Positions 2,151-48,093 of a stretch of DNA of 64,000 nt are shown piece after piece. The notes beneath the pieces were generated by a model. That model was given only the letters and a program-made list of their open reading frames with translations, had not been told where the DNA came from and made no database searches. This DNA is from Flavobacteriales bacterium. GTDB lineage: Bacteria > Bacteroidota > Bacteroidia > Flavobacteriales_F > PHOS-HE28. How positions within the stretch are numbered: the first letter of the stretch is position 1; the number at the start of each line of letters is the position of its first letter. The stretch spans positions 65,561 through 129,560 of the forward strand of contig JBGAGX010000003.1 of the NCBI GenBank assembly GCA_044226515.1. Direction: 5' to 3'. A program made the translations under genes and the position numbers.

Positions 2151-2791
2151 GCCCCGCCGACGCCCGCATGCTGGAGGACCTGCGCACCGCGTTGCGCGGC
2201 GAGCTGCCGGGTCACGACGCGTTCCTGCATCTGAGCGGGTACAAGCGTCACGATCTGGAGGACGCGCTGCGCCAGAACCCCGCCCCGCGCGAGAGCGCGG
2301 TGCTCGCTCTGATCTACCCGCGCGAGGGCCGGTTGCACACCCTGCTGATGCGACGGCCCGAGTACGATGGCGTGCACAGCGGGCAGGTGGCCTTCCCCGG
2401 TGGTCGCCGGGAAGAGCAGGACCGCGACCTGCGCGACACCGCGCTGCGCGAGTTCCAGGAGGAGACCGGTGCCTCCACCGCCCGGTTCGACGTGCTGGGG
2501 CCGTTGAGCCGCGTGTACATCCCGCCGAGCCGATCCCTCGTTACACCGTTCGTGGCCGCGGCCCCTGCCCTGCCGCCCACCGCGCCCGATCCACGCGAAG
2601 TGGCCGCCTTGATCGAAGCACCGCTCGAAGAACTGCTGCGACCGGACGTGGTGCAGGTGCGCAGGCAGTACATCCAGGTGCTGGGGCGCGAGGCCGAGAT
2701 CCCCTACTTCGACCTGCAGGGCCAGGTGGTGTGGGGCGCCACGGCGATGATGCTCGCTGAACTACGCGAGCTCCTGCACCGGCTCCGGTAG
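2147..2791 (+). CDS. NUDIX hydrolase, CoA pyrophosphatase-like
   Basis: Nudix box FPGGRREEQDRDLRDTALREFQEETG; ATGA overlap with upstream stop; the track ORF is 5'-extended. Confidence 0.75.
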   Translation: MSPADARMLEDLRTALRGELPGHDAFLHLSGYKRHDLEDALRQNPAPRESAVLALIYPREGRLHTLLMRRPEYDGVHSGQVAFPGGRREEQDRDLRDTALREFQEETGASTARFDVLGPLSRVYIPPSRSLVTPFVAAAPALPPTAPDPREVAALIEAPLEELLRPDVVQVRRQYIQVLGREAEIPYFDLQGQVVWGATAMMLAELRELLHRLR

Positions 2792-5700
2792 GCCGAAGAG
2801 CTTGCGGAAGCGGGCGTTGGGCACCACGCCCCGGGCGTCCTCGCTGTACTCGGGCTTCAAGCGCTTCACGAAGTACATGTCGATCCGCCCCTTGTTCTTG
2901 GCCTCCACCTGCCCGCGGTGCACGCACTCGAAGTGGTCCTTCAGCAGCGCGTAGGTCGCCCCGCTCACGTTCACCTCGCCGGGCTCGCCGCTGCTCTCCA
3001 TGCGGCTGGCGGTGTTCACCGCATCGCCCCAGATGTCGTAGGCGAACTTGCGCTTGCCCACCACACCGGCCACCACGGGGCCCGTGTGCAGGCCGATGCG
3101 CAGGATCCAGGGCTCCTTGCCCTTCGCCTCGTGCTCGCGGCGCCATTGGTCCATCATCTCGCGCACCTCCAGGGCGGCCATCGCCGACTTCACGGCGTGG
3201 TGCGGATCGCTCGAGGGCACACCGCTCGCGCACATGTAACTGTCGCCGATGGTCTTGATCTTCTCGATGCCGTAGCGCCCGATGATCTCGTCGAACTTGA
3301 TGAAGCACTCATCCAGCTCGTTCACCAGCTCCTCCGGGGTCATCTTCTCCGCCGCCTTGGTGAAGCCCTTCATGTCGGTGAACATCACCGTGACCTCATC
3401 GTGGCGGCGTGCGGTGGCCTTGCCCTTGTCCTTGAGCTCCTCGCTGATCTCCTTGGGCAGGATGTTCAGGAGCAGGTCCTCGATGCGCACCTTCTGCCCT
3501 TCGATCTCCTTGCTCTGGGCCACCACCTCGGCGGTGCGCTCCTCCACCTTGCGCTCCAGGATCTGGTTGCGCAGCCTCAGCTGGCGCTCGCGGAACTTGA
3601 TGTAGCTGAACACCCCGATGACGATGGCGGCGACAACGGTCGTATAGAACCACCAGCTCTGCCACCACGGCGGCAGGATGGTGAAGCGCAGTTCGGCGGG
3701 CTTCTCGCTCCACAGCCCCGCGCGGTTCATGCTCTTCACCTTGAAGGTGTAGGTGCCCGGTGTAAGGCCGGGGTAGTAGGCCTCGGCGGCGGAGGTGTGC
3801 GACCAATCGTTCTCCAGCCCCTCGAGCATGTAGGCGTACCGGACCGCCCCGGGGTCGCTCAGGCTCACCGATCCGAAGCGGAAGCGGATGCTGCGCTCAT
3901 CGTGCGAGAGGCTCACGCCCTGCTCAACGGGGCGGTCCTCCTTCTCCTGGTTGATGTTCCATGAACGGATGGCGATGATGGGCGGCTTCACGCTCAGCTT
4001 TCCCTTCTCGGGCACCACGCGTGTGGCTCCCTTGGCCGTGCCGAACCACAGGTCGCCGTTGCGGGTGATGCATACCGCGTTGGGCTTGGCCTCCACGCCG
4101 ATGAAGCCCGATGCCCCGGTGTAGGCGAGCAGCCCTTCCTGGCCGGGCCGCCAGCTGTTGAGGCCGTTCACCGTGCCGATCCAGATGGATCCGTCGCCGT
4201 CGCGGACCAGGGAGCGCACGCCATCGGCCAGCAGACCCTCCTTCTCGGCATAGGTGGCCAGCACCTTGCCGTCCTTCATCACCAGCACGCCTTTCTTGGC
4301 CGTGCCCACCCACAGGCGGCCCTCCCCGTCCTGCACGAAGCACGTGGGGGTGAGCGTGCCTTCCACCTCCACCCTGGTGGGCTTGCCGTTGTCGAGCCGG
4401 GTGATGCCCTGCTCCTTGCTGCCGACCCAGATGGTGCCCTTGTCGTCGCGGAAGAGAGCGGACACGGCGCTCGTGGGCACGCCGTCCTCCGGTCCGTACA
4501 CCATGGGCGGGGCACCAGCGGAATAGCGACGAAGCCCCGTGATGGTGCCCACCCACAGTTCGCCCGGCTGGCCCACGCAGAGGGCGGTGACCTTGTTGCG
4601 CGGGATCAGCTGGTCCAGGTCGGGGTGCGGGATCTGCTGGAACGCCACCGGGTCGAGCTCCAGCAGGCCGCCGGTCTCGGAGCCGATCCAGATGTTGCCT
4701 ATCGCGTCCTCCACGAGGCTCCGCACGCGGCTGGTGCGCACGGTCTGCAGCGTCTTGATCATGCCCGGTCCCTGCACCTTCGGGTCCAGGATGCTCACCC
4801 CGCCATCGGTGCCGAACCACAACCGGCCGTTGCGGTCCTCCATCACGGCCCACACCTGCTGGTCCAGGAGGCCGTCCTGTTCCATGAGATTGAGGAAGCG
4901 CTCCCCCTTGAAGATGATGAGCCCGTAATCGCTGGTGGCGAGCAGCATGTTGCCCTCGCTGTCCCGCGCGATCTTGCGGATCTGCAGGCTCTCCAGACCG
5001 TTGCCGGGATGGTAATGGCGACGCACGCCATTGAGGCCGATCACGGCCGCACCCCCACCCCAGGTTCCCACCCACACCTGTCCGGCGGCATCCTCGCCGA
5101 AACACGAGACGAGGTTGCTGGGCAGGCCATTGGCGGTGCTGTAGTTCACCACCTGGCCGGTCCGATGATCCAGCACGTAAGCGCCATTGGCAAGGGTGCC
5201 GAGCCACAGCCGGCCTTCCCCGTCCTCGTAAAGGGCGTTCACCCCGAGGACGTCCTGCAGGCCGTTCCATTCCAATGAACTGAAGCGCTTGGTGGAGGCG
5301 TCCCATTTCTTCAAGGTGCCGCCATCCTCGAGGAAGGCGATGGTGCCGTCCCTGAACCGTCGCACATCGAGCAGGTGGTCGAGCAGGCCCTGGTCGCCGC
5401 TGAAGCGCTGGCAGGTGAGCGCACCATCCTCGCCAACGGCCGTTACATGCAGCGCGCCCTGGCCCATGGTGGTGACCCAGAACGTACCGTCCGCGTCCTC
5501 GATGATGCCGGTGATGTCGGCCGTGAGCGCATCGCCCTCCGGCCTCGCCACTCGGAACTCGCGACCGGAGCGAAGGCTGATGCCACCACCGGAATGCCCC
5601 ACCCAGAAGCGCTGATGGGAGTCGATCAGCAGGCAACGCGCGCCCTTGGGAGCGAGGCCGTCGGTAACGCCATAGGCATGCACGCCATCGCGCTCGCGCC

Positions 5701-5881
5701 CGTCGAAGCTCACCAGGCCGTCCTCGGTGCCCAACCACACCAGGCCCGAGCTGTCCTGCAACACGCTGTACACGTTGCTGGTGGGGAGCCCGTTCTGCAC
5801 GTCGAGCCGTTCGAAGTAGAAACGCTGGGCGTGCAGGCCAAGGACGGCCGTGCAGGCAAACAGGAGAGCGGTGAGGCGCAT
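2762..5881 (-). CDS. Periplasmic two-component-regulator-propeller + Y_Y_Y sensor fused to a class III adenylate cyclase (membrane-bound)
   Basis: Signal peptide MRLTALLFACTAVLGLHAQ, about 700 aa of beta-propeller repeats, Y_Y_Y-like region, one TM helix (WWFYTTVVAAIVIGVFSYIKF), a coiled coil, then a cyclase homology domain (FTDMKGFT ... IKTIGDSYM ... YDIWGDAVNTASRMES). Alternative ATG at 5905. Confidence 0.8.
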   Translation of the reverse strand: MRLTALLFACTAVLGLHAQRFYFERLDVQNGLPTSNVYSVLQDSSGLVWLGTEDGLVSFDGRERDGVHAYGVTDGLAPKGARCLLIDSHQRFWVGHSGGGISLRSGREFRVARPEGDALTADITGIIEDADGTFWVTTMGQGALHVTAVGEDGALTCQRFSGDQGLLDHLLDVRRFRDGTIAFLEDGGTLKKWDASTKRFSSLEWNGLQDVLGVNALYEDGEGRLWLGTLANGAYVLDHRTGQVVNYSTANGLPSNLVSCFGEDAAGQVWVGTWGGGAAVIGLNGVRRHYHPGNGLESLQIRKIARDSEGNMLLATSDYGLIIFKGERFLNLMEQDGLLDQQVWAVMEDRNGRLWFGTDGGVSILDPKVQGPGMIKTLQTVRTSRVRSLVEDAIGNIWIGSETGGLLELDPVAFQQIPHPDLDQLIPRNKVTALCVGQPGELWVGTITGLRRYSAGAPPMVYGPEDGVPTSAVSALFRDDKGTIWVGSKEQGITRLDNGKPTRVEVEGTLTPTCFVQDGEGRLWVGTAKKGVLVMKDGKVLATYAEKEGLLADGVRSLVRDGDGSIWIGTVNGLNSWRPGQEGLLAYTGASGFIGVEAKPNAVCITRNGDLWFGTAKGATRVVPEKGKLSVKPPIIAIRSWNINQEKEDRPVEQGVSLSHDERSIRFRFGSVSLSDPGAVRYAYMLEGLENDWSHTSAAEAYYPGLTPGTYTFKVKSMNRAGLWSEKPAELRFTILPPWWQSWWFYTTVVAAIVIGVFSYIKFRERQLRLRNQILERKVEERTAEVVAQSKEIEGQKVRIEDLLLNILPKEISEELKDKGKATARRHDEVTVMFTDMKGFTKAAEKMTPEELVNELDECFIKFDEIIGRYGIEKIKTIGDSYMCASGVPSSDPHHAVKSAMAALEVREMMDQWRREHEAKGKEPWILRIGLHTGPVVAGVVGKRKFAYDIWGDAVNTASRMESSGEPGEVNVSGATYALLKDHFECVHRGQVEAKNKGRIDMYFVKRLKPEYSEDARGVVPNARFRKLFGLPEPVQELA

Positions 5882-5888
5882 CGGTGGA

Positions 5889-8093
5889 TCAGCGGGTAAG
5901 GTCATAGAAGCTGGCCTCGGAACCGGCGGCGTCGCTCACCACCAGGGTGTTGCTCACACTCTCGCTGTAGTTCTGGATGAGGTTCTTCAGCGGACCGTAG
6001 TTGTAGAAGGAGTAGATGTCGTCCTTCTTGGCGTCAACGGGGATCCAGAAGCTCTTGCCGCCCACTGTGCGCCCATGCCCGGCGTACCACACGAGCACGG
6101 TGTTCACCTTGTTGGAACGCACCAGGTCGCGCAGCTCGGTGCTGAAGAACCGATCGAGCTGCTGCTTGGTGAGGTTCTTCTTGGTGATGGTCTTCTGCAC
6201 GTTGTACTTGGCGAAGGCCTTCTGCATCTTGGCCGCATCGTTGCCCTGTCCCTGCAAGGCGGGGAAGCTCTTGTAGTCGCTGTTCTCGATGAACACCACC
6301 CAGGTGACGCCCGAGCTCACCGCGGTGCCGGCGGCAGGCTTCTCCACGGGCTTCTCCACCGGCCGGGTGCCCGTACCGGCGCCATTGCCCTCCGCCGGCT
6401 TCATCACCGCCACGGCTTCGGCCTTCCGCTGCAGCTGGTACACCACGTCGGTGCCGTTGCCGAACTGGTCCTCGGCGCGCACGGTGAACCGGTCCTTGCC
6501 GGCGATCACCAGCTTCATGCTGAAGTCGGTGCGGTTGGTGTCGGGCACGTAGCTGGCCAGGATGCCATCGATGGTGATGCTGCGGATGATGCTGGCATCG
6601 CTGGCCGTTCCCTCGATGAAGAGGTCCTCCTTGCCGGCCGCCACGCTGATGATGCGGTCCCCACCGGGTGAGGGGGAGGTCACCGCCACCACCGGGGGGA
6701 CGCCCTCGCTCCGTTCCACGTGCAGGGACAGGCTTGCCTCGTTGTCGTACAGGTCGATCGCGGTGACCAGGATCTCCTTGTCGGTCGCGGTGAGGGGCAC
6801 GGCGACGAAGAACTCGGGATCGCGCTCATCCTTGGCGAAGTCCGCGTCGAGGCCGTTCACCGTGATGCGCTTCAGCTTGTTGCGGTCGCGCACGTGGCCG
6901 TTCACCTTCACCTGCGCGAGCACGGAGCTCACCTGCGCCACACCACCGCGGTGGATCGGTTCCACCACCGTGATCACCGGCGGGTCGCTCTCGCGGTTCA
7001 GTTCAAAGAGCTGCTTGTCCACGCGGTCGCGCTGTTCCTGCACCTTGCGGCGGAAGTCCGTGTCGTACGCGTCGTTGCCCTCCATGGCCTTCTTCGCCGC
7101 GTCGAGGTCGGCGATGGCGCCCTCCAGGTCCACGTTGGCCTCGCGACAATCCGCGCGCAGCAGCAGCAGCTCCACGTTCTGGGGCTGGGCGAGCAGCACC
7201 TTGTTCAGGTCGTTGATGGCGTTCTGGTGCTGCCCGAAGCCATGGTAATAGCGCGCCCGCTGCACGTACACGGCATCATCTGTGCGGCCCAGCGCGATGC
7301 ACTTGCTCACGTCGTCGATGGCCTTGCTGTAGTCCTTCTGCAGGGCGAAGGCCTTGCTGCGGGTGAAGAGCGCGTCGGTGCTGGCGGGGTTGAGCTCCAG
7401 GGCCCGGGTGCATTTCTCGATGGCCTTCTCCAAGGTGCGCATCTGCATGGTGGGGCCGCTGTACATGCGGTACAGGTCGAGCTGCACTTCGGCCAGGGCC
7501 ACGTAGGCCGGCTCGTACTGGTAGTTCCACTCGATCACCTTGTCCAGGTCGAACTCGGCGGTCTTCAGGTCGCGGGTGGCGTGGCGGGTGATGCCGTGCA
7601 GGTAGTAGGTGTCGGTGGTGCCCTTCACGGCCAGGGCGGCGTCGGCCGCGGCACTGGCCTTGTCGAGGTCGCCGATGGCGAGGGCCGCGCGCACCTTGGT
7701 CTGCAGGGCCGCCATGTTCTTCGGTTCCACACGCAAGGCCTGTTCGCACAGCTGCAGCGCCTTCGCCTGGTCGCCGAGCTCGTAGTAGGCCTTGGCGGCC
7801 TCGGCCGCGAGGGCGGCGTCCTCGGGCGCGAGCTCGGCCACACGGGCCCGGTCGGCAGCGCATTCCGCCTTCTTCCCGAGCAGGTTGTACACGTCGGCCC
7901 GCGCCTGGTAGGCCTTCTGCATCTTCGGGTCCACCTGGATCGCCAGGTTGAACTTCTCCAAGGCCTGGTCGAGCTGCTGCTCCTGTACAAGCTTCTCCCC
8001 TTCCTTGAAGAACGACTTGCCGCCTTGGGCGGTGGCTGAGCCGAGCAGCAACACGAGGCCGGCCAGGGAGAGGATGGCGCGTAGGATGGTCAT
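5889..8093 (-). CDS. Secreted TPR-repeat protein with two Ig-like beta-sandwich domains and a C-terminal caspase-like (C14/CHAT-like) domain that lacks the catalytic Cys
   Basis: Signal peptide MTILRAILSLAGLVLLLGSATAQ, multiple TPR motifs, and a C-terminal WVVFIENSDY ... VLVWYAGHG ... LVVSDAAGSEASF region matching the caspase p20 His-Gly / D-A-C-x-S-G pattern with Cys replaced by Ala. Stop at 5889-5891 lies 7 nt from the ATG at 5881 and overlaps the alternative ATG at 5905. Confidence 0.7.
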   Translation of the reverse strand: MTILRAILSLAGLVLLLGSATAQGGKSFFKEGEKLVQEQQLDQALEKFNLAIQVDPKMQKAYQARADVYNLLGKKAECAADRARVAELAPEDAALAAEAAKAYYELGDQAKALQLCEQALRVEPKNMAALQTKVRAALAIGDLDKASAAADAALAVKGTTDTYYLHGITRHATRDLKTAEFDLDKVIEWNYQYEPAYVALAEVQLDLYRMYSGPTMQMRTLEKAIEKCTRALELNPASTDALFTRSKAFALQKDYSKAIDDVSKCIALGRTDDAVYVQRARYYHGFGQHQNAINDLNKVLLAQPQNVELLLLRADCREANVDLEGAIADLDAAKKAMEGNDAYDTDFRRKVQEQRDRVDKQLFELNRESDPPVITVVEPIHRGGVAQVSSVLAQVKVNGHVRDRNKLKRITVNGLDADFAKDERDPEFFVAVPLTATDKEILVTAIDLYDNEASLSLHVERSEGVPPVVAVTSPSPGGDRIISVAAGKEDLFIEGTASDASIIRSITIDGILASYVPDTNRTDFSMKLVIAGKDRFTVRAEDQFGNGTDVVYQLQRKAEAVAVMKPAEGNGAGTGTRPVEKPVEKPAAGTAVSSGVTWVVFIENSDYKSFPALQGQGNDAAKMQKAFAKYNVQKTITKKNLTKQQLDRFFSTELRDLVRSNKVNTVLVWYAGHGRTVGGKSFWIPVDAKKDDIYSFYNYGPLKNLIQNYSESVSNTLVVSDAAGSEASFYDLTR

Positions 8094-8221
8094 GACGGGT
8101 GCGGAGCGAAAATAGGGCCAAGGGACGGACCCGTCGATCATCGATGACGGCGGTGAGGCGCCACGAAAAAGGCCGCACCGATCACGGGGATCGATGAGGC
8201 CGGTCGTTTTCGTCCGGGAGC

Positions 8222-11760: not shown

Positions 11761-12967
11761 CGGGGATCAAGGCTTCAACACGGTCCAGGATGCGTTGGGC
11801 GACCTGGGCCTTGCTCATCAACGGCAGCGCTTCGGGATCCGTGTCCCGGCCTAGGAAGGTCACCTGGTTGGTGTCGTGCCCGAAGCCGGCCCCGGCATGG
11901 CGGAGGGAGTTCAGCACCAGCAGGTCCAGGTTCTTGCGCATGAGCTTGCCGCGGGCGTTCTCCAATTCGTTGTCGGTCTCCAGGGCGAACCCCACGAGCA
12001 CCTGGCGCGGGGCCTTGTTGGCGCCCATCCAGGCCAGGATGTCCTCCGTGGGTTCCAAGGTAAGCGCCTCAAGGGTCGTGCCTTTCTTCAGCTTGGCCCC
12101 CGAGGGTGCGGCGGGCCGCCAATCGGCCACCGCGGCGCTGGCGATGGCCATGTCGCAGGCCGGGAACAGCGACTTGCATGCTTCGGCCATCTGGGCGGCG
12201 CTCACCACGTCCGTACGCTGGATGCCAGCCCGGTCCGTGGTGAGGGTCACCGGACCGGTGACCAGTTCCACCCGCGCACCGCGCAGGGCGGCCTCCTCAG
12301 CGATGGCGAAGCCCATCTTCCCGGTGCTGCGGTTGCCGATGTACCGGACCGGATCGATGGCCTCCTGGGTTCCGCCGGCGGTGATCAGCACGGTTCGCCC
12401 GGCCAGTTTCGACGGGCCGATGAGCGCCTGCTGCAGGGCCGCGCAAATATCGTCCGGCTCGGTCATGCGCCCCTCGCCCACCAGACCGCTCGCCAGCTCG
12501 CCCGCGACCGGACCGATGGTGCGCACGCCCCGCTCCCGCAAGGCGGACAGGTTGCCCTGGACGCCGGCGTCGCGCCACATCTCCAGGTCCATGGCGGGGG
12601 CCACGAAGACCGGGCATTCGGCGCTGAGGTAGCAGGCCAGGAGCAGGTTGTCGCACAGCCCGCGGGCCATCTTGCCCAGGGTGTTCGCACTGGCGGGGGC
12701 CACCACCATCGCGTCGGCCCAGCGGGCCAGGTGCACATGGTCGTTCCAGCGGCCGCTGCCGTCGCGCGCGAAGAGGTCGGTGAGCACCGGCCTGCGGCTC
12801 ACGGTGCTCAAGGCCAGGGGCGTGACGAAGTCGTGCGCGGCGGGGGTCATCACCACCTGCACCTCGGCACCGGCCTTCACCAGGGCGCGCACCAAGGCAG
12901 GCGTCTTGTAGGCGGCAATGCCACCGGTCACTCCCAGCAGCACCTTGCGCGGCAGCGCGAAAGCCAT
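11753..12967 (-). CDS. coaBC: Bifunctional phosphopantothenoylcysteine decarboxylase / phosphopantothenate-cysteine ligase
   Basis: Flavoprotein N-domain (VLLGVTGGIAAYKTPALVRAL) plus a CoaB ligase C-domain; start at MAFALPRK. Confidence 0.85.
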   Translation of the reverse strand: MAFALPRKVLLGVTGGIAAYKTPALVRALVKAGAEVQVVMTPAAHDFVTPLALSTVSRRPVLTDLFARDGSGRWNDHVHLARWADAMVVAPASANTLGKMARGLCDNLLLACYLSAECPVFVAPAMDLEMWRDAGVQGNLSALRERGVRTIGPVAGELASGLVGEGRMTEPDDICAALQQALIGPSKLAGRTVLITAGGTQEAIDPVRYIGNRSTGKMGFAIAEEAALRGARVELVTGPVTLTTDRAGIQRTDVVSAAQMAEACKSLFPACDMAIASAAVADWRPAAPSGAKLKKGTTLEALTLEPTEDILAWMGANKAPRQVLVGFALETDNELENARGKLMRKNLDLLVLNSLRHAGAGFGHDTNQVTFLGRDTDPEALPLMSKAQVAQRILDRVEALIPDA

Positions 12968-12998
12968 GATCAGGACCGCGGGCGTCGGGGCCCGGGGA

Positions 12999-13349
12999 TC
13001 ACTTGGATTCGGGGAGCGCGGGGGCACCGCCGTCCTCCGGCCGGCGCAGCACGATGCGGCCTTCCTGGAGCTCCTGGATGGCCAGGGCGCTGGGCTTGGG
13101 CATGCGCTCGTAGTGCTTGCTCAGCTCGATCTGCTCGCGGTTCTCGTAGACCTCCTCGAGGTTCTCACCGGTCACGGCGAACTCCTCCAGCTTCGCGCTC
13201 AGCTCGGTCTTCACCTCGGTGGCGATCTGGTTGGCGCGCTTGCCCAGCAGGCTCACGGTCTCATACACGTTCCCGATCTCCTTGTCCAGTTCGTTCACGT
13301 CACGGGTCACCGTGGTCTTGGCTGCGTTCATGCTGCGTTGGGTGTTCAT
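12999..13349 (-). CDS. rpoZ: DNA-directed RNA polymerase subunit omega
   Basis: 116-aa protein in the conserved bamD-rpoZ-coaBC position; omega-like core (IVLRR near the C-terminus). Confidence 0.65.
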   Translation of the reverse strand: MNTQRSMNAAKTTVTRDVNELDKEIGNVYETVSLLGKRANQIATEVKTELSAKLEEFAVTGENLEEVYENREQIELSKHYERMPKPSALAIQELQEGRIVLRRPEDGGAPALPESK

Positions 13350-14404
13350 GGCGTCGAGGCTTTCTTGGCGTTCCTGGCCGCGATCAGTTCCCGCTTCGCC
13401 TGAAGCGCGTCCGGCATACGCGGACTATCAGGGAATTGGGCCGCAAAGGTATCAAAGAAACGTAGACCGTCCTCGATGGTCACCAGCCGGTTCTCGTTCC
13501 TGCCGTCCTTGGCCAACGGCACGCTCGCCAGCAGGGCGTCGAAGAGGTATTGCTCCCGCAGCCCCTGGAGCTCCTCGCGGTAGGCCTTCACCTGGCCTAC
13601 CGACCGGCTTTCGGGGAAGGCGTCCTCGAACAGGTAGGAGCTCTCCACGGCGGTCTCGGCCCGCTTGGGCCGGCGAATGGCCACACTGCGCATGGCCAGG
13701 TCGTGCTCGGCCTGCACCACCATGAACAACGCGTCCTCCCGATGGGTCGAATTGGGCCATTTCCGCACGAAGTTCTTCAGGGCCACACTGGCGCTCTCGT
13801 AGTTGCGCAGGCGGAAGTACTGCTTGGCGTTCTCGAAGTCCTTCCGCTCCAACTTGCCCCGCAGCCCGTCGATCAGCGCGTTGCAGGTGTCGCGCCGCTC
13901 GGTGTACGGGTAGTAGGCCAGGAACAGCTGGAACTGGTCGATGGCGAGCTCGGTGTCCGTCTGGTCCAGCTCCCACTCCGGGCTGTTCTTGAAGTAGCAC
14001 ATGGCGCTGAGGAAGGTGCACTCCTCGGCGTACTGGCTCGTGGGGAAGGTCTTGGCGTAGTTCTCGAGGTAGTAACCGGCCAGGATGAAGTCCTTCATGC
14101 CGTAGATGGTCATGGCCCTCAGGTAGTTCACCCGTTCGCTTTCGGACCGCCCCCGGGTGAACACCGCGAGCTCTTCCAACAGCGGCAGCGATCGGTCGTA
14201 GTCGTTCTTCGCGAAGTACTTCTCCGCCACCCGCAGCTTGTAGGCGATCACCGTATCGGTGCTGGAGTGGGTGTACTTCATCGCCCGGTTGAACTCGCTG
14301 CAGCCCGGCAGCGCCAGGCCGCCCAGCACCAGGAGAAGCGTCCACAGGCCGAGGAGCACCACCGGAGCGGACCGTCGCAACGGCCGGCCGGCAGGGGAAC
14401 GCAT
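13346..14404 (-). CDS. bamD: Outer membrane protein assembly factor BamD (TPR lipoprotein)
   Basis: Lipoprotein signal ending LALPGCSEF; TPR-like helical repeats; conserved synteny. The track ORF 13346..15850 extends antisense over the neighbouring gene and is trimmed to the in-frame ATG at 14404. Confidence 0.7.
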   Translation of the reverse strand: MRSPAGRPLRRSAPVVLLGLWTLLLVLGGLALPGCSEFNRAMKYTHSSTDTVIAYKLRVAEKYFAKNDYDRSLPLLEELAVFTRGRSESERVNYLRAMTIYGMKDFILAGYYLENYAKTFPTSQYAEECTFLSAMCYFKNSPEWELDQTDTELAIDQFQLFLAYYPYTERRDTCNALIDGLRGKLERKDFENAKQYFRLRNYESASVALKNFVRKWPNSTHREDALFMVVQAEHDLAMRSVAIRRPKRAETAVESSYLFEDAFPESRSVGQVKAYREELQGLREQYLFDALLASVPLAKDGRNENRLVTIEDGLRFFDTFAAQFPDSPRMPDALQAKRELIAARNAKKASTP

Positions 14405-14548
14405 CGGGATCAAGGTCATTTCGGCGGGGCGCAAAGTTATCAACATCCCGCGGGGTGAAGAACGGCGGCGGTCCCGGGCCTCGTATGGGCGGTTGGTTAC
14501 CTTTGCGGCCACCTGCAAGGGAGGCCTCCTCCCGCCATTCAAGCGACC

Positions 14549-15793
14549 ATGAACGACATATTCGACAAGCTCCGCAAGGACCTGGGCCACATCGGCCGCC
14601 ACGCCAAGAACAGCCACGGCTATTTCAGCTTCCCCAAGCTCGAGGGCGAGCTCGGCGCGCACATGACCTTCCGGGGCAAGCCCGTGCTGGTGTGGAGCCT
14701 GAACAACTACCTGGGCCTGGCCAACCACCCGGAAGTGCGGAAGGTGGACGCCGAGGCAGCCGCCGCCTGGGGCATGGCCTACCCCATGGGTGCCCGCATG
14801 ATGAGCGGCCAGACCAAGTACCATGAGGAGCTCGAGGACAAGCTGAGCGAGTTCATGGGCAAGGAGGACACCTTCCTGCTCAACTACGGCTACCAAGGGT
14901 GCATGAGCGCCATTGAGGCGCTCCTCGGCCGCCATGACGTACTGGTGTACGACAGCGAGTGCCACGCCTGCATGATCGACGGCGCCCGCCTGCACATGGG
15001 CAAGCGCTTCGTGTTCCAGCACAACGACATGGCCAGCCTGGACAACATGCTGGAGAAGGCCGCCAAGGTGACCAGGGAGACCGGCGGCGGGATCATGGTG
15101 ATGACCGAGGGCGTGTTCGGCATGGCCGGCGACCAGGGCAAGCTGAAGGAGATCGTGGAGCGCAAGGCGAAATACAACTTCCGGCTGTTCGTGGACGATG
15201 CCCATGGCTTCGGCATGATGGGCAAGGATGGCCGGGGCACCGCAGACGCCCAGGGCGTAATGGACCAGGTGGACGTGTACTTCGGCACCTTCGCCAAGGC
15301 CATGGCCACCATCGGCGCCTTCGTGAGCGGGCCCGAGGACGTGATCATGTACCTGCGCTACAACATGCGCAGCCAGACCTTCGCCAAGAGCCTGCCCATG
15401 CCCATCGTCATCGGCGCCCTCAAGCGCCTGGAGATGATCCGCACGCGCCCCGAGTTCAGCGAAAAGCTCTGGACCATCACCAAGGCCCTGCAGAGCGGCC
15501 TGAAGGAGGCCGGGCTGGACATCGGTGTCACCAACAGCTGCGTGACCCCCGTGATGATGCACGGCAGCATCCCCGAGGCCACCAACGTGGTGCTCGACCT
15601 CCGCGAGAACCACGGCATCTTCTGCAGCATCGTGGTGTACCCCGTGGTGCCGAAGGACACGATCCTGCTGCGCCTCATCCCCACCGCGGTGCACACCCTG
15701 GACGATGTGCAGCGCACCATCAACAGCTTCAAGGAGGTGAAGAAGAAGCTGGAGGCCGGCGCCTACAGGGCCGAACAGGTGGCCACCATCTGA
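14549..15793 (+). CDS. PLP-dependent alpha-oxoamine synthase family enzyme (KBL / BioF / serine-palmitoyltransferase-like)
   Basis: Class-II aminotransferase fold with the conserved PLP-Lys region GTFAKAMATIGAFVSG and full-length similarity to KBL/SPT. Confidence 0.8.
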   Translation: MNDIFDKLRKDLGHIGRHAKNSHGYFSFPKLEGELGAHMTFRGKPVLVWSLNNYLGLANHPEVRKVDAEAAAAWGMAYPMGARMMSGQTKYHEELEDKLSEFMGKEDTFLLNYGYQGCMSAIEALLGRHDVLVYDSECHACMIDGARLHMGKRFVFQHNDMASLDNMLEKAAKVTRETGGGIMVMTEGVFGMAGDQGKLKEIVERKAKYNFRLFVDDAHGFGMMGKDGRGTADAQGVMDQVDVYFGTFAKAMATIGAFVSGPEDVIMYLRYNMRSQTFAKSLPMPIVIGALKRLEMIRTRPEFSEKLWTITKALQSGLKEAGLDIGVTNSCVTPVMMHGSIPEATNVVLDLRENHGIFCSIVVYPVVPKDTILLRLIPTAVHTLDDVQRTINSFKEVKKKLEAGAYRAEQVATI

Positions 15794-15812
15794 TCCCATT
15801 GAACGAGCGGAA

Positions 15813-15841
15813 AGCCCCGGTGATGAGCCGGGGCTTTTCTT
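15813..15841 (+). terminator. Intrinsic terminator after the alpha-oxoamine synthase gene
   Basis: AGCCCCGG-tgatga-GCCGGGGCT hairpin followed by TTTTCTTGT. Confidence 0.6.
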
Positions 15842-15863
15842 GTCGTCCACCTAGCTTCGGGGC

Positions 15864-16181
15864 ATGCTCCTCGTGTTCCAAGGTCGCGGCCGGTTGGTGC
15901 CGGTCACAGGTTTCGCCGCCATCGCGGTGGCCGACCTCGCCGGCCTGCACGACCCGTGCGTGGTGCGGGACCGCTTCGCGCTGAGCGGTCCGGTGGACCG
16001 CTATCTTGGGAACCGGTGGAACAGCGCCGAAGGCCGGCCGCTCGAGGACCTTCTCACGGGCAAGGTGGTGGAGCACCGCAGCGTGCACTCCTTCTTTTGG
16101 GTGTCTATGCAGCATTGGCTTTGGGTGGAGGCGGGCATGGTCATGCTGTTCAACGTCGTGTTCCTGCGCCATGTGGAATGA
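15864..16181 (+). CDS. Hypothetical small protein (105 aa, hydrophobic C-terminus)
   Basis: ATG immediately after the terminator; no recognisable domain; overlaps the next ORF by 11 nt. Confidence 0.3.
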   Translation: MLLVFQGRGRLVPVTGFAAIAVADLAGLHDPCVVRDRFALSGPVDRYLGNRWNSAEGRPLEDLLTGKVVEHRSVHSFFWVSMQHWLWVEAGMVMLFNVVFLRHVE

Positions 16182-16623
16182 CCCCCGCCCCGTGGTTGCC
16201 GCACTGGGGATGCTGCTGTGGACCGGCACCCATGCCCAGATCACGCCCGAGGAGCGGCCGCAAGGGCCTCCGTGCACGCTCTTCGTGCATGGCACCTTCG
16301 ACCTGCGTGGGGACCGACCAGGAAAGGACATCCGCATCGTCCGCCGGGGCAGCAAGCAGATCGAGCATGCACCGGAGGGATACCGGAGCATCACCCGGGT
16401 GAAATGGTTGGACGATTGCACCTACCAACTGTACGATCGACGTGTGAAAGGCGGGTCCGACCCCCATACCGGTCACGTGACGGACACGCTTACCATCCGC
16501 ATCACCGACACCTGGTACCACGGGTACTCCTACCAGGCGACGAGCAACTTCAGCGACCTGGAGCTGATGGGCACCATGGAACTGGTTCAACCCAAGGCCG
16601 GCGGCTTCTCGATCGGGTTCTGA
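16171..16623 (+). CDS. Hypothetical secreted protein (150 aa)
   Basis: In-frame ATG giving MWNDPRPVVAALGMLLWTGTHAQ signal-like N-terminus; the upstream part of track ORF 16006 is Cys/Ser-rich junk. Confidence 0.4.
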   Translation: MWNDPRPVVAALGMLLWTGTHAQITPEERPQGPPCTLFVHGTFDLRGDRPGKDIRIVRRGSKQIEHAPEGYRSITRVKWLDDCTYQLYDRRVKGGSDPHTGHVTDTLTIRITDTWYHGYSYQATSNFSDLELMGTMELVQPKAGGFSIGF

Positions 16624-36327: not shown

Positions 36328-36418
36328 TTAACCGGGTGCTGTGGACAGCCGGGGTCGACAGGGATGAAGCCCGCATCGGCGCGGGACTAGCTTCGGACCG
36401 AGCTACGAACCCACGGCC

Positions 36419-36805
36419 ATGAAGCATCTGCATATCGACCGCACCGAGACCTCGCCCGAGATCGACATGGACCTGGAGCATGGCGTGATCGAGTTCATCG
36501 GGCGCAGCCTGCCCGCCAACAGCGAGGAATTCTACGGCCGGGTGTACCGGTGGCTGGACGAGTACGTGCGCCGCCCGCAACCCGAGACCACGGTGAACAT
36601 GCGCATGGACTACCTCGACACCAGCTCAAGCAAGCACTTCTTCAACATCTTCGACAAGCTCAACGCCGTGAGCGAGCGCGGCCAGAAGGTTTGCGTGCGG
36701 TGGCACTACGAGACAGGCGACGAGGAGATGGCCGAGGCCGGAAAGGATTATCAGAGCTTCTTCGCCATCGATTTCGATTTCGTGGAGGTGAAGGAGCTGT
36801 TCTGA
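36419..36805 (+). CDS. DUF1987-family protein (SiaC-like)
   Basis: 128 aa; N-terminal MKHLHIDRTETSPEIDMDLEHGVIEFIGRSLPANSEEFYGRVYRWLDEY matches the DUF1987/SiaC pattern. Confidence 0.55.
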   Translation: MKHLHIDRTETSPEIDMDLEHGVIEFIGRSLPANSEEFYGRVYRWLDEYVRRPQPETTVNMRMDYLDTSSSKHFFNIFDKLNAVSERGQKVCVRWHYETGDEEMAEAGKDYQSFFAIDFDFVEVKELF

Positions 36806-41251: not shown

Positions 41252-44200
41252 ATGAACAGTCGTACCCTGGCCAGACGAGTTCCATCCCGAACCGCGCTAT
41301 CGCTTGCTTCTTTGCTGCTTGTCGGCTCCGTGAAGTCCCAGATCGCTGCCTGGGACTTCACAGGTGAATCCAGCCCGGCCACATCGGCCGCGGATGTGTA
41401 CAATGCCAACCTGGATGCCTCCAACCTGCTCACCCGGGGATCAGGTGCGGCTGCGAGCACCGCTTCGAATTCCTTCCGGACAGTGGGATTCCAGAACAAC
41501 GGCATCAGCACGGCCAATACCGATTACTTCGAGTTCACGCTCTCGGCCACCGTTGGGTATTCGTTGAACCTATCGACGCTCGATGCCCGGGTGAATGGTA
41601 CAGGTTCATTCACCGCTGCTCCCGGCGCTTCCCAGCAGTTCGCATACAGCCTTGACGGGGTGAACTTCACCCTGATCGGATCGCCGATGATCACGCTGTC
41701 GGGTCCTGTGAACCTGCCGCAAACTGACCTGACGGGCATCCCGGCCTTGCAAGGGATCACGGACGGTACCACGGTGACCTTCCGGTTCTATGCATCGGGC
41801 CAGACCACCACGGGCGGCTGGGGCTTCACCTCCAACGCCGTCGGCCAGTATGGCCTCGCTGTTGGGGGCTCCGTTGTGAACAACAGCACCTCGCTCGCCT
41901 TCGCCGCCGCTTCCGCTACGGTGGCCGAGAACGTAGGTACCACGCCCATCGCGGTGAACATCACCAACCCCAGCCCCGGCATCGCCACCACCGCCGATCT
42001 GGTACTCACAAGCGGTAGCGCCGCACGCATCGGCAACTACACCACTCAGCAGCTGGTGTTCCCCGCCAACAGCAACGCCAGCCAGTCGGTCACCATCACC
42101 GTTACCGACAACGGCGTGAGCGATGGCAACGCCGTCCTGATGTTCCAGCTCCAGAACCTGACCGGAGGCCTCGGTACGCCCACGGTCACTCCGCCCAACA
42201 CCTATACGCTCACCGTGCTCGACAACGATGCCCCGCCCACGGTGAGCATCGGAAGCGCATCCATCGCGGAGGGCAACTCCGGAACCACCAACGTGCAAGT
42301 GGCGGTCACCATGGCCACGCAGCCGGGTGCGGACGTGAACGTGCAGGTGACGGATGCCCTCACGGGCTCGGCCCTGAGCGGCACGGACTACATCACCGTC
42401 AGCCCGGCCACGATCACCTTCACGTCGGCCGATACCTACCCGAACACCCAATACGTCACCGTGGCCATCGCAGGCGACACGGACGTGGAGCCGAACGAGA
42501 CCATTGACCTGATGCTCGGCATCACCTCGGGGTCCGCCACGCTGGGCACCAGCACCGGTACCGTCACCATCACCAACGATGACCTGCCCACCGTGTACAT
42601 CAACGAGGTGGACGCCGACAACCCGGGTACGGACAACCTGGAGTTCGTGGAGCTCTACGGCGCGCCCAACCTCTCCCTCACCGGCACGGTGCTGGTGTTC
42701 TTCAACGGCAGCAACGACCTCTCCTACACCTCCTTCGACCTGGACGGTTACAGCCTCGACGCCAATGGCTTCTTCGTGGTGGGCAACGCTGCGGTGCCTG
42801 GCGTTGACCTGACCTTCCCGGACAATATCCTCCAGAACGGTGCGGACGCTGTTGCGATCTACTACGCCGACGGCAGCTCCTTCCCCACCAACACCCCGGT
42901 CACCACTACCAACCTGATCGATGCACTGGTGTATGACACCGATGACGCGGATGATGTGGGCCTGCTCGTGCTGCTGAATCCCTCCCAGCCGCAGATCAAT
43001 GAGAACGGGAGCGCGCTGAGCGCCTCACAGAGCATGAGCCGGGTGCCCGATGGTGGTACGCTCCGGAACACGGACACTTACGTATTGCAGACGCCCACAC
43101 CCGGCGCCACGAACACCAACACCTGCGACTTGGTGCTGGGCAGCGAGAGCGTGGCGTGCGCGACCGTGACCCCCGGTCCGGGCGACACCTACTCCGTGAG
43201 CATCCCCTACACCGGCAGTGAGCCCGGCGTCACCGTGGTGAACAACAGCGGTTCCGGTACCGTGGGCGGGGACGACCCGGCCGTGTTGGTGAACGGGACC
43301 ATCGTGGTGAGCGGGATCACCGAGGGCACCCCGTACAGCATCACCTTCACGGCTCCCTGCGGTGCCCTGGTGAAGAGCGGCAGTGCCCCGGCCTGCGAGC
43401 CCTTGCCCCTCATCGTCATCAACGAAGTGGACTACGACAACCCCGGCACGGACAACGCCGAGTGGATCGAGCTCCGCAACAACGGCAGCATCGCCTACGA
43501 CCTGAACGGGTACAAGGTGGAACTGGTGAACGGCAGCGCCGGTGGTGCCGCAGTGTACAAGACCATCGTCCTTCCCACGTTCAGCCTCGCTCCTGGCGCT
43601 TACTACGTGATCGGCAACAACGCCACCATCCCCAACATCAACCTGGTTGAAACGCCCGCCACGGACATGATCCAGAACGGAGCGCCCGATGCCATCGGCC
43701 TTCGTGATGCCAGCAACAACCTGCTCGACGCCATCAGCTACGAGGGGACCAGCGGCGCGCCCTATCAGGAAGGCGGCGGCACCACCCTGGCGGATCCCGG
43801 CACCACGGCAGCCGCCTCCGCGAGCATCGGCCGCTATCCTGACGGTGCCGACACCAACGACAACACGGCCGACTGGGCCCTGGCCTGCGTGAGCACGCCC
43901 GGTGCCGCGAACACGCTGGGCGTCGACACCGACGGAGACACTTTCCTTGACTGCCTGGATGGCTGCCCGAACGATCCGAACAAGCAGGCCCCGGGCCAGT
44001 GCGGTTGCGGCGTATCCGACGTGGATACGGACCTGGACTTCATCGCTGACTGCCTGGACGGCTGCCCGAACGACCCGTTCAAGGTGACCCCCGGCGATTG
44101 TGGCTGCGGCAATCCGGACACGGACGCGGATGGCGACCTGGTCTCCGACTGCATCGATGGCTGTCCCAACGATCCGCTGAAGACCAGCCCCGGCCAGTGC

Positions 44201-45970
44201 GGCTGCGGCGTGCCGGAGAGCGGCGACACCGATGGCGATGGACTTGCCGACTGTGTTGACAGCTGCCCCTTGGTGGCCGGCCAGATCGGTAGCGCCTGCG
44301 ACGATGGAAATGCCTGCACCACCGGTGATGTGCTCGACGCCAACTGCGTCTGCACCGGCACCTTCCAGGACACCGACGGCGACGGCGTGTGCGATGCCAG
44401 CGACAGCTGCCCCTTGGTGGCCGGCCAGATCGGTGCCGCCTGCGACGATGGAAATGCCTGCACCACCGGTGATGTGCTCGACGCCAACTGCGTCTGCACC
44501 GGCACCTTCCAGGACACCGACGGCGACGGCGTGTGCGATGCCAGCGACAATTGCCCCTTGGTGGCCGGCCAGATCGGTGACGCCTGCGACGATGGCAACG
44601 CGGCCACGATCAATGACGTGCTCACGGCAACCTGCACTTGCGAAGGAACCGTGGTGGCCTGCACGCAGAACGAAGTGACTCTGGAACTCACCACGGACAA
44701 CAATGGAGCACAGACCAGCTGGGAGATCGTCCCCTCCGGCGGTGGCGCTCCCGCCTGCTCCGGCAGCGGTCTGGCCAGCAACACCACCATTTCCGTCACC
44801 TGCTGCCTGGCCGATGGCTGCTACCAACTGCGCGTGCTTGACAGCTTCGGTGACGGGATGAGCGCTGGCGGCTGGGTGTTGCGCGATGCCAGCAACCGCC
44901 GGATCCTGGATAACGCGGGCGATGCGAACTGGACGGGCTCCTCCGTGCAGGCCCCCGACGTGTTCTGCCTGCCCATGGGTACCGACGGCCTCACCGCCGC
45001 CACCTGCGATCAGGAAACGGCGACCGGATCCTTCACCCTACAGACCGAGGAGAACCCTGCAGTGACCGCACAGTTCGGTGTGAGCAACAGCACCAGCGGC
45101 TATCAGTTCTGGATCTACAACCCCGACGGATCCTATAGCCGCCGCGTGTTCTTCAGCCACCAGAGCCCCGGCAGCAGTGCTCCCTCCGGTACGCCCGCTC
45201 CGTTGAAGGCCTCCTTCCTTCGGCTGAACACCCTCACCACCAACCCCGTACCCAGCTTCACCCTGCTGAACGTGAAGGTGCGGGGCCGCGTGGCCAACGT
45301 GAACCTGGAATGGGGCGCCGCCTGCCGCTTGAAGGTGGACCCCACCGCCAACTGCCAGCTCACGCAGCTCACCACCACGGCCGACCCCGTGATCTCCTGC
45401 GGTGCCTCGGGCCTGCTGATCAACGGTGCGGACAAGATCTATGCGGTGATGGTGCCCGGAGCCAACAAGTACCAGTTCCGCTTCACCCGTCCGGGCTACA
45501 CCCGCAACATCGCCACCACCACCCGCGCACTCACCCTCAGCGAATGGAACACCAACCCGCTTCAACCGGGCCTGTGCTATGATGTGGTGGTGCGCGTGAG
45601 CTTCGATGCGGGCACCACGTGGTGCGCCTATGGCAGCAGCTGCCAGATCTGCACCACCCCGCCCCCGCCCGTCAATGGCGGCAACGACCGCGCCCTGAGC
45701 GCCAACACCGCCAGCGGCCTGGTGATCTACCCCAACCCCAACCGCGACGGGCTCCTGCAGTTGCGCGTGGCCGATCTGGGATCCGATCAGCAGACCGTGA
45801 CCGTGGACGTGGTGGATGTGCTCGGCAAGCGGGTGATCGCCCTGGTGATCCCCGCGCAGGGCAGTTCGCTCAACGCCACCCTCCAGCTCAACGGCATCAA
45901 CGCCGGCCTGTACACGGTCAACGTTTCCGCAGGGGACAAGGTCTTCACCCAGCGCCTGGTCATCCAGTAA
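41252..45970 (+). CDS. Giant cell-surface adhesin-like protein (1572 aa): Calx-beta domains, two lamin-tail domains (LTD), thrombospondin type-3-like Ca-binding repeats, T9SS C-terminal sorting domain
   Basis: Signal peptide; Calx-beta motifs (GDTDVEPNETI); LTD motifs (INEVDADNPGTDNLEFVELYG and INEVDYDNPGTDNAEWIELRNNG); DTDGDGVCDASDSCP-type TSP3 repeats; C-terminal LYTVNVSAGDKVFTQRLVIQ. Confidence 0.85.
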   Translation: MNSRTLARRVPSRTALSLASLLLVGSVKSQIAAWDFTGESSPATSAADVYNANLDASNLLTRGSGAAASTASNSFRTVGFQNNGISTANTDYFEFTLSATVGYSLNLSTLDARVNGTGSFTAAPGASQQFAYSLDGVNFTLIGSPMITLSGPVNLPQTDLTGIPALQGITDGTTVTFRFYASGQTTTGGWGFTSNAVGQYGLAVGGSVVNNSTSLAFAAASATVAENVGTTPIAVNITNPSPGIATTADLVLTSGSAARIGNYTTQQLVFPANSNASQSVTITVTDNGVSDGNAVLMFQLQNLTGGLGTPTVTPPNTYTLTVLDNDAPPTVSIGSASIAEGNSGTTNVQVAVTMATQPGADVNVQVTDALTGSALSGTDYITVSPATITFTSADTYPNTQYVTVAIAGDTDVEPNETIDLMLGITSGSATLGTSTGTVTITNDDLPTVYINEVDADNPGTDNLEFVELYGAPNLSLTGTVLVFFNGSNDLSYTSFDLDGYSLDANGFFVVGNAAVPGVDLTFPDNILQNGADAVAIYYADGSSFPTNTPVTTTNLIDALVYDTDDADDVGLLVLLNPSQPQINENGSALSASQSMSRVPDGGTLRNTDTYVLQTPTPGATNTNTCDLVLGSESVACATVTPGPGDTYSVSIPYTGSEPGVTVVNNSGSGTVGGDDPAVLVNGTIVVSGITEGTPYSITFTAPCGALVKSGSAPACEPLPLIVINEVDYDNPGTDNAEWIELRNNGSIAYDLNGYKVELVNGSAGGAAVYKTIVLPTFSLAPGAYYVIGNNATIPNINLVETPATDMIQNGAPDAIGLRDASNNLLDAISYEGTSGAPYQEGGGTTLADPGTTAAASASIGRYPDGADTNDNTADWALACVSTPGAANTLGVDTDGDTFLDCLDGCPNDPNKQAPGQCGCGVSDVDTDLDFIADCLDGCPNDPFKVTPGDCGCGNPDTDADGDLVSDCIDGCPNDPLKTSPGQCGCGVPESGDTDGDGLADCVDSCPLVAGQIGSACDDGNACTTGDVLDANCVCTGTFQDTDGDGVCDASDSCPLVAGQIGAACDDGNACTTGDVLDANCVCTGTFQDTDGDGVCDASDNCPLVAGQIGDACDDGNAATINDVLTATCTCEGTVVACTQNEVTLELTTDNNGAQTSWEIVPSGGGAPACSGSGLASNTTISVTCCLADGCYQLRVLDSFGDGMSAGGWVLRDASNRRILDNAGDANWTGSSVQAPDVFCLPMGTDGLTAATCDQETATGSFTLQTEENPAVTAQFGVSNSTSGYQFWIYNPDGSYSRRVFFSHQSPGSSAPSGTPAPLKASFLRLNTLTTNPVPSFTLLNVKVRGRVANVNLEWGAACRLKVDPTANCQLTQLTTTADPVISCGASGLLINGADKIYAVMVPGANKYQFRFTRPGYTRNIATTTRALTLSEWNTNPLQPGLCYDVVVRVSFDAGTTWCAYGSSCQICTTPPPPVNGGNDRALSANTASGLVIYPNPNRDGLLQLRVADLGSDQQTVTVDVVDVLGKRVIALVIPAQGSSLNATLQLNGINAGLYTVNVSAGDKVFTQRLVIQ
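44261..44652 (+). repeat. 144-nt (48-codon) in-frame tandem repeat, 2.6 copies, the first two near-identical
   Basis: AGCTGCCCCTTGGTGGCCGGCCAGATCGGT... recurs at 44261, 44405 and 44549; it encodes SCPLVAGQIG(S/A)ACDDGNACTTGDVLDANCVCTGTFQDTDGDGVCDASD. Confidence 0.8.
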
Positions 45971-46019: not shown

Positions 46020-46320
46020 GGCGTTCAGGCCCCTGGCAGCAGTTGCCAGAGCCGTGGCGCCTCAGTGCGGCGCCGCTCCACGGGATCGACCGAGGACCGG
46101 GTCTCCCTGGCGATGCTGGCTCTCCGATTAGTTCTCGAGGGCGGCGCAGCATTCCTTAGCCCGGCCCATGAGGGACACCATCGGCACGGGTGGCGAACGT
46201 TGACCCCATCGCTGCATGCCATCGCGTGCGCCCTTGTTCCGCAGGGAGGGACTTCCTGGAATGGAGCGGCCCCCTCCATCGTTCGCACAGGAACCAGGAG
46301 GGGGCCGGCGACCAGCGCGC

Positions 46321-47943: not shown

Positions 47944-48051
47944 GGAGGTCCGTGCAGGTTGATGATGGCCGAATGTACCCTGCCGCCCGCACTTCGGGCC
48001 ATTGGTTCCGATGGGGCGGTGCGGCCCGTCCCCGGGCGCGGCACCCCGGCC

Positions 48052-48059
48052 TACATTTG
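48052..48059 (+). promoter_or_regulatory. Candidate -7 element TACATTTG (Bacteroidota TAnnTTTG) 34 nt upstream of prfC
   Basis: Exact match to the -7 consensus; no convincing -33 TTG at canonical spacing. Confidence 0.25.
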
Positions 48060-48093
48060 CGGCCCCGTTCGCGCCAACGGGGATCGACGAACC

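Follow-up and report, generated by a model that had tools for sequence, protein, structure and literature searches.

A p20-only caspase homologue without the catalytic cysteine is encoded beside a sensor adenylate cyclase in Flavobacteriales

The locus and the layout of the encoded protein

We analyzed a stretch of 64,000 nucleotides from a Flavobacteriales bacterium (GenBank assembly GCA_044226515.1, contig JBGAGX010000003.1, positions 65,561 to 129,560; hereafter the window) and focused on a gene of its minus strand (5889..8093) whose product ends in a caspase-like domain lacking the catalytic Cys and the second half of the fold. We call this shortened domain the stub. A preliminary description, made from the letters of the DNA, had noticed the domain and taken the protein for a pseudo-protease used as an interaction or sensor module. 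The next gene downstream on the same strand (2762..5881) encodes a sensor adenylate cyclase, and we lean towards the view that the caspase-like protein is a periplasmic pseudo-orthocaspase serving as a non-catalytic binding accessory of this cyclase.

The open reading frame (ORF) that holds the caspase-like gene extends over 5889..8141 on the minus strand and has 750 codons when counted from its longest start, at 8141. Comparison with orthologues, which are 713-769 amino acids (aa) long, set the start at the ATG at 8093 (MTILRAIL…), giving a protein of 734 aa that is numbered from there. Read by eye, its N-terminus is a signal peptide (MTILRAILSLAGLVLLLGSATA followed by Q; 8028..8093), and the related proteins of the sister family described below have comparably hydrophobic N-termini, implying that the protein is probably exported to the periplasm.

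A full-length AlphaFold model, calculated from a 95-sequence alignment, reached a mean predicted local distance difference test score (pLDDT) of 90.6. It begins with an all-helical TPR superhelix of about 8 repeats (aa 25-337, 7083..8021; pLDDT ~98), over which matches to the Pfam TPR families span aa ~40-360, and continues through a long helix (aa 345-365) into two β-sandwich (Ig-like) domains (aa 373-462 and 468-557, 6423..6977). The latter were recognized from the modelled strands and from Pfam, where Glucodextran_B matched the region in two stretches with 28.5 bits and Big_7 matched it weakly. A low-complexity linker (aa 560-591, 6321..6416), predicted to be disordered (pLDDT below 50) and carrying the highest nonsynonymous divergence (dN) of the protein, leads to a compact α/β domain (aa 597-720), the p20-like half of a caspase with strands β1-β4 (5925..6311), for which Pfam PF00656, AlphaFold, Foldseek, alignments and substitution rates all provide evidence. 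The protein closes with a conserved tail of 11 residues, G-[ST]-[ED]-[AP]-S-F-Y-[DE]-L-[TS]-R (aa 724-734, 5892..5924), followed by a TGA stop codon (5889..5891). This tail is predicted to be disordered, with a pLDDT below 50 in both AlphaFold models, each of them a monomer. Docking of the tail into the protein's own TPR groove was considered and dropped, as the tail was disordered in the full-length model.

The conserved start of the sensor gene is the ATG at 5881 (MRLTALLF…, the beginning of a signal peptide), 7 nt past the stop of the caspase-like gene. The preliminary description had argued from an overlap of stop and start that the upstream gene was no decayed fragment. That argument falls away, since there is a 7-nt gap instead; a start at the alternative ATG, 5905, would create a 17-nt overlap with the upstream stop, but orthologues do not share it. 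The sensor consists of a signal peptide, Reg_prop β-propellers (Pfam, 183 bits) and a Y_Y_Y domain (59 bits), which a single transmembrane helix links to a cyclase domain of class III (Guanylate_cyc, 198 bits), in which we recognized by eye the metal-binding, Lys/Asp and Asn/Arg motifs. It is thus a Reg_prop/Y_Y_Y sensor with a class III cyclase output, and its propellers lie N-terminal of its single transmembrane helix. N-terminal signal sequences can be read in both the caspase-like protein and the sensor.

A caspase fold without its cysteine and its second half

The Pfam profile Peptidase_C14 (PF00656) matched the whole protein with E=7e-10 (39.4 bits, cut-off 21.4) and the last 186 aa with 6e-11 (42.8 bits, cut-off 21.4), the match spanning only positions 3-126 of the 233-position profile. 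Modelled by AlphaFold on their own, the last 146 aa (pLDDT 79, predicted template modelling score 0.75) displayed the order β1-α1-β2-α2-β3-hairpin-α3-β4. When this model was compared with the PDB by Foldseek, the MALT1 paracaspase accounted for the first 34 matches (best E 9.5e-7; template modelling score over the query, TMq, up to 0.67), followed by the p20 chains of caspase-1, -11, -3 and -2 with ~145 of 146 columns aligned, and all of the top 50 matches belonged to the caspase family. The caspase-type match of the C-terminal domain is far beyond chance. The p20 layout proposed in the preliminary description is therefore borne out by profile and by fold, no different fold being found among these 50 structures.

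The C-terminal part of the ORF reads WVVFIENSDY … VLVWYAGHG … LVVSDAAGSEASFYDLTR and then stops. In a sequence search of the PDB, VLVWYAGHG…FWIPVDA paired with LLYYAGHG…FMVPVDA of MALT1, which places the His of YAGHG (codon 6075-6077) opposite MALT1 H415. Sequence searches against solved structures, with the single sequence as well as with a family profile, retrieved MALT1 only (E ~0.01-0.06), and the alignment ended short of the Cys even with the profile. The Cys position was therefore fixed by a gapless alignment with relatives that carry DACESG, together with the fold. In this alignment L-V-V-S-D-A-A-G-S-E of the window protein lies over L-V-V-[ST]-D-A-C-E-S-G, so that an Ala (codon 5925-5927) stands opposite the Cys of the DAC[EQ][ST]G motif of the closest full-length relatives. 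The replacement of Cys by Ala had been correctly seen from the start, although the spacings need correction: His and Ala are 50 residues apart, and the stop follows 11 residues past the Ala rather than 15. The caspase-like domain contains no Cys anywhere. Of the features that define the C14/caspase-hemoglobinase fold, the domain has the profile match, the p20 strand order and the nearest solved structures; it lacks the His-Cys dyad, having the His and an Ala in the Cys column, and it lacks a complete domain with the p10-equivalent half (β5, β6).

The relatives of the domain show what has been lost. An exhaustive HMMER search of 1.84 billion cluster representatives, with the last 186 aa as query, returned 984 relatives, among which the nearest form a clade of equally truncated proteins, followed by ~90 clusters of full-length proteins of ~780 aa. 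This sister family of Bacteroidota (for example P0126 and P0130) consists of a signal peptide, TPR, two β-sandwich domains, a linker and a caspase domain. Among 73 full-length proteins compared, the His was kept in 65 and the Cys in 66, and all of them run ~95 residues further, ending in …ENGTFFFIKK. The sister domain alone matched Pfam C14 at profile positions 3-222 of 233 (E 2e-17), from which we conclude that the extra ~95 residues are the p10-equivalent half that the window protein, with its match to positions 3-126, does not have. The stub descends from an active-looking, apparently periplasmic caspase-like protease of the same architecture.

Loss of catalytic residues was also observed inside the full-length family, where the domain is complete and Cys (replaced by T, S, G or A) or His (replaced by L, Q, K, N or R) has been lost in a scattered manner (P0131, P0159, P0170, P0171, P0181, P0183, P0189, P0191, P0193, P0194, P0198, P0202 and P0223). 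These scattered, independent losses indicate that loss of catalysis recurs in this family. An unrelated protein of 1851 aa that contains EAD11 (P0236) carries one caspase domain with DSAHSG and a second, C-terminal caspase-like domain, whose Cys position is occupied by Ala and which ends 10 residues later in …IISDAAYSGSFFTTHR; this end is either a second p20-only truncation or a cut at a contig end.

To establish how widely the truncation is shared, we relied on two samples. Of 389 matches retrieved from among 5.8 billion proteins, the best 120 were taken as orthologues. These are 59-87% identical to the window protein, all come from metagenome-assembled genomes of Flavobacteriales/Bacteroidota, and all 120 have Ala at the Cys position; every C-terminally complete one ends in …SFY[DE]L[TS]R. 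The second sample comprised 55 loci of the truncated clade, from 55 species-level GTDB genomes. There the Cys position is occupied by A, V, T or S and never by C, and all 55 loci end at the same residue by means of TGA, TAG or TAA. In a set of 128 clade proteins the position is A in 127. Whether orthologues carry Cys or Ala was a question raised in the preliminary description, and the answer is that a residue other than Cys is fixed throughout the clade. The truncated clade was monophyletic in 57 of 60 neighbour-joining bootstraps, a distance method, and we therefore assign it a single origin.

A hidden Markov model (HMM) built from 66 sister tails, that is, from the missing p10-equivalent part, matched nothing in the six frames of the window or within 8 kb on either side of 60 truncated-clade loci, and retrieved sister genes only. 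The missing half is therefore not separately encoded nearby, and a split gene with a separate p10 was ruled out. As judged from these comparisons the truncation is real and ancestral, in agreement with the first impression that a p10-like region is absent. Most likely, the stub is a pseudo-orthocaspase that has lost catalysis and kept the p20 half alone, the p10-equivalent part (β5, β6 and the cleft-closing loops) being gone.

Selection on the stub and pairing with a sensor gene

We estimated the ratio of nonsynonymous to synonymous divergence (dN/dS) by the Nei-Gojobori method for four regions of the protein against the 12 closest genomes. The ratio was 0.07-0.24 in the stub, 0.17-0.71 in the TPR part, 0.19-0.59 in the β-sandwiches and higher still in the linker, and the stub was the region with the lowest ratio in 12 of 12 comparisons (in one example, 0.031/0.42 for the stub and 0.084/0.47 for the TPR part). 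In comparison to the sister family, identity is likewise ~54% over the stub and 25-32% over the remainder of the protein. These results demonstrate that the stub is under strong purifying selection and shows no decay. Such selection on a dead stub argues that it works by binding and not by cutting, and we are highly confident that it is a pseudo-protease kept by selection.

A decaying pseudogene or an assembly artefact, such as a premature stop in this genome only, would also leave a truncation just past the active site, which is what a nonsense mutation gives, and one database copy (P0134) is in fact frameshifted. The comparative data refute this explanation, whose chance we consider negligible: 120 proteins share the same end, as do 55 species-level genomes, in which it is followed by any of three stop codons, the dN/dS of the stub is low, and the tail is invariant. 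The preliminary description was thus right that the gene is not a decayed fragment, on grounds other than those it gave.

Individual residues differ in how they have been retained among the 128 clade proteins. The Asp equivalent to MALT1 D365 is D in 124, the aspartate of PVDA is D in all 128, and the tail S-F-Y-[DE]-L-[TS]-R is nearly invariant. The His is L or Q in 4 of the 128 and is also missing in some of the clade genome loci, the replacements within the clade being L, Q or A, and the Asp equivalent to MALT1 D462 is K in 21 of the 128. Read from these alignments, catalytic constraint is relaxed in the clade, and the pattern of residues is that expected for a binding module no longer needing catalysis. 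One could still imagine a working protease whose missing half is provided in trans, by a p10-like protein or through dimerization, and which uses another residue as nucleophile; the p20 and p10 of animal caspases are separate chains that assemble, and the window protein retains the His, the D365-equivalent Asp and, in most of the clade, the D462-equivalent Asp. We regard this as very unlikely, given a domain free of Cys, A, V, T or S at the Cys position, L, Q or A in some members at the His position, and the failure of the tail HMM to detect p10-like sequence in the window or around the 60 loci.

The gene order around the stub is conserved as well. A gene for a Reg_prop/Y_Y_Y cyclase is the next gene downstream on the same strand in 53 of the 53 clade loci that have enough downstream sequence, and all junctions that were measured showed a gap of 3-45 nt between the two genes. 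Downstream of the gene for the Cys-bearing sister, 24 of 25 loci of the genome scan and one further locus (L005) have a homologous propeller/Y_Y_Y sensor whose output is SpoIIE/PP2C, and next to the gene for P0148, a protein with an intact dyad, lies one for a propeller/Y_Y_Y sensor equipped with HisKA, HATPase and receiver domains. Flanking FabI, RecN and NUDIX genes recur in the truncated clade and are present in none of the sister loci, leaving the caspase-sensor pair as the only unit conserved across contexts. Our initial claim that a sensor is always adjacent was dropped, because 5 of 6 informative distant relatives have no adjacent sensor; P0186 is uninformative in this respect, as its contig ends just past the gene.

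Sensors of this kind were also seen on their own. Further Y_Y_Y/SpoIIE-type genes with no caspase partner occur nearby in several sister loci (L085, 1-3376; L067, L069 and L070, ~12000-16300), indicating that the sensors also exist unpaired. DUF6272 and SiaC genes come after one such unpaired gene in L085, and directly after the Y_Y_Y-SpoIIE sensor in L005. The window itself holds an ORF for a SiaC-family regulatory phosphoprotein (36368-36799, plus strand; PF09345, E 2e-36), about 30 kb from the caspase-like gene, and this, together with the SiaC gene that follows the L005 sensor, suggests that a partner-switching module may exist in this genome. Two other genes of the window are mentioned for completeness: one for a 1572-aa protein with LTD, Calx-beta and type IX secretion system sorting (Por_Secre_tail) domains (41252-45967, plus strand) and, beside it, one for an RF3-type GTPase (46216-49689, plus strand), whose longest ORF has ~630 extra N-terminal codons and is probably over-extended in GC-rich sequence.

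Since the relevant parts of both proteins are apparently periplasmic, we read the pseudo-caspase as an accessory of the sensor cyclase. Its most likely partner would be the β-propeller/Y_Y_Y domain that the sensor, whose gene starts 7 nt downstream, would expose to the periplasm, or else a ligand that is presented to this domain, and as an accessory or co-sensor it could tune the output of cyclic AMP (cAMP). The exposed edge of β4 and the invariant disordered tail (…SFY[DE]LTR) are candidate contact elements. The pseudo-protease part of the earlier proposal stands, and the suggested role as an interaction or sensor module is something we still infer, although it gains weight from the conserved pairing with a gene for a periplasmic sensor. 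A bolder version of this model would regard the two proteins as an obligate receptor pair of the periplasm. Here the sensor ectodomain would complete the open β4 edge and the tail of the p20-only stub, the resulting "split caspase fold" would be a permanent co-receptor gating cAMP synthesis, and the same contact in the Cys-bearing sister would act as a proteolytic on/off switch; we consider this speculative and improbable.

Several points weigh against the accessory role. Five distant, full-length relatives (P0170, P0194, P0177, P0153 and P0162) have no sensor immediately downstream, which indicates that a caspase-like protein can work without one. Contact between the pseudo-caspase and the sensor is itself something that we infer, and the association of the truncated form with a cyclase and of the full-length form with PP2C represents one evolutionary event, not many independent ones. 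We know of no four-stranded half of a caspase fold that is stable alone, and the confidence of the models (pLDDT 79-90) could in part have been learned from full caspase folds. Finally, the predicted periplasmic location depends on how the N-terminus is read.

The same five relatives lend some weight to another explanation, namely that the protein is a stand-alone periplasmic scaffold whose TPR and β-sandwich domains do the work, for example in handling envelope or outer-membrane proteins, the stub being a structural remnant with a different binding client, and the two genes lying side by side only because they are transcribed together. TPR proteins are common as envelope scaffolds, and NCBIfam gave weak matches of the window protein to PilW-, GltE- and LapB-like families. 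However, the most constrained region is the stub and not the TPR part, and the caspase and sensor genes have stayed together even though the outputs are of three kinds and the flanking genes unrelated. We therefore hold a stand-alone scaffold to be possible and rather doubtful.

The combination of a caspase-like protein with a nucleotide cyclase also brings to mind an anti-phage or conflict system resembling Pycsar or CBASS, in which the former would be the effector. The cyclase domain matched PADLOC PycC with 63 bits, at the generic level only, and NCBIfam returned a weak match to "caspase, EACC1-associated type" (26 bits, cut-off 140). Nevertheless, export signals are present on both proteins, the caspase-like domain is catalytically dead, and PADLOC found on the pseudo-caspase two TPR-level matches near E 3e-4 and nothing relevant. 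The surroundings are stable housekeeping synteny throughout the clade (RecN, FabI, NUDIX, signal peptidases) rather than a variable island. A defence system was accordingly rejected as the principal explanation, the locus not qualifying under PADLOC, and we think it highly improbable. We thus retain the binding accessory of the sensor cyclase as the reading towards which the evidence tilts.

Comparison with known systems

Dead caspase homologues of bacteria have been described, and their roles are mostly unknown. It has been previously reported that pseudo-orthocaspases make up 8.6% of bacterial orthocaspases, that they occur mostly in Alphaproteobacteria and Cyanobacteria and that they usually have Tyr-Ser dyads; His-Ala variants are mentioned for Rhizobiales, and in Bacteroidetes 10 of 1078 sequences were pseudo-variants (Klemenčič et al. 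2019, PMC6426788). In that work a pseudo-orthocaspase is a p20 protein in which the His-Cys dyad is substituted and to which no p10 HMM matches, often fused to TPR or other domains; acidic residues of the specificity pocket are retained despite the dead dyad, and modelled cyanobacterial variants showed the overall p20 fold and binding pocket to be alike in true and pseudo-variants (PMC6426788). The window protein is a pseudo-orthocaspase by this definition, with a p20 match, no p10 and a His-Ala dyad. It differs from those described in being physically without the second half of the fold, not merely without a p10 HMM match, in being exported (as predicted), in having an active-looking sister of identical architecture, and in the pairing of its gene with a Reg_prop/Y_Y_Y sensor whose output domain was swapped. 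It is not a paracaspase, a class defined by a Pfam Ig, Ig_2 or Ig_3 domain before the p20 (PMC6426788), since PF00047, PF13895 and PF13927 gave no match.

The sister family is the closest comparison. It shares with the window protein the signal peptide, the TPR, the two β-sandwich domains, the linker, a p20 of ~54% identity and a homologous sensor encoded downstream; unlike the window protein, it has the H…DAC[EQ][ST]G residues and the additional C-terminal stretch, and its sensor has a SpoIIE/PP2C output and not a cyclase.

Among proteins of solved structure, MALT1 and the caspase p20 chains are the best structural matches, and MALT1 has both YAGHG and …PVDA in common with the window domain. 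The window domain is co-extensive with the p20 chain of caspase-1, over 145 aligned columns, and in caspase-1 itself Cys285 lies about 12 residues from the C-terminus of p20. MALT1 and the caspases differ from it in having the Cys, a p10 or its equivalent that completes the six-stranded sheet, and a cytosolic location.

The neighbouring gene has its own parallel in the hybrid two-component sensors of Bacteroides of the BT4663 type, which have the same Reg_prop/Y_Y_Y module before a single transmembrane helix and in which this module binds a glycan-derived signal made by enzymes encoded nearby. In the window, by contrast, the output is a class III adenylate cyclase rather than a histidine kinase with a response regulator and AraC, and in place of a glycoside hydrolase the adjacent gene encodes a dead homologue of proteases. 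In the literature library searched we found no paper on the pairing of a caspase with a Y_Y_Y sensor, an absence that is no proof of novelty.

A natural p20-only half that is under stronger constraint than the rest of its protein shows which portion of the caspase fold suffices for a non-catalytic role, and the active-looking sister of the same architecture offers a built-in comparison. The swapped outputs of the sensors (cAMP, PP2C partner-switching and histidine kinase) point to a link between a periplasmic caspase-like protein and transmembrane signalling in Bacteroidota. If this link holds, it would be among the first concrete functions for a bacterial pseudo-caspase.

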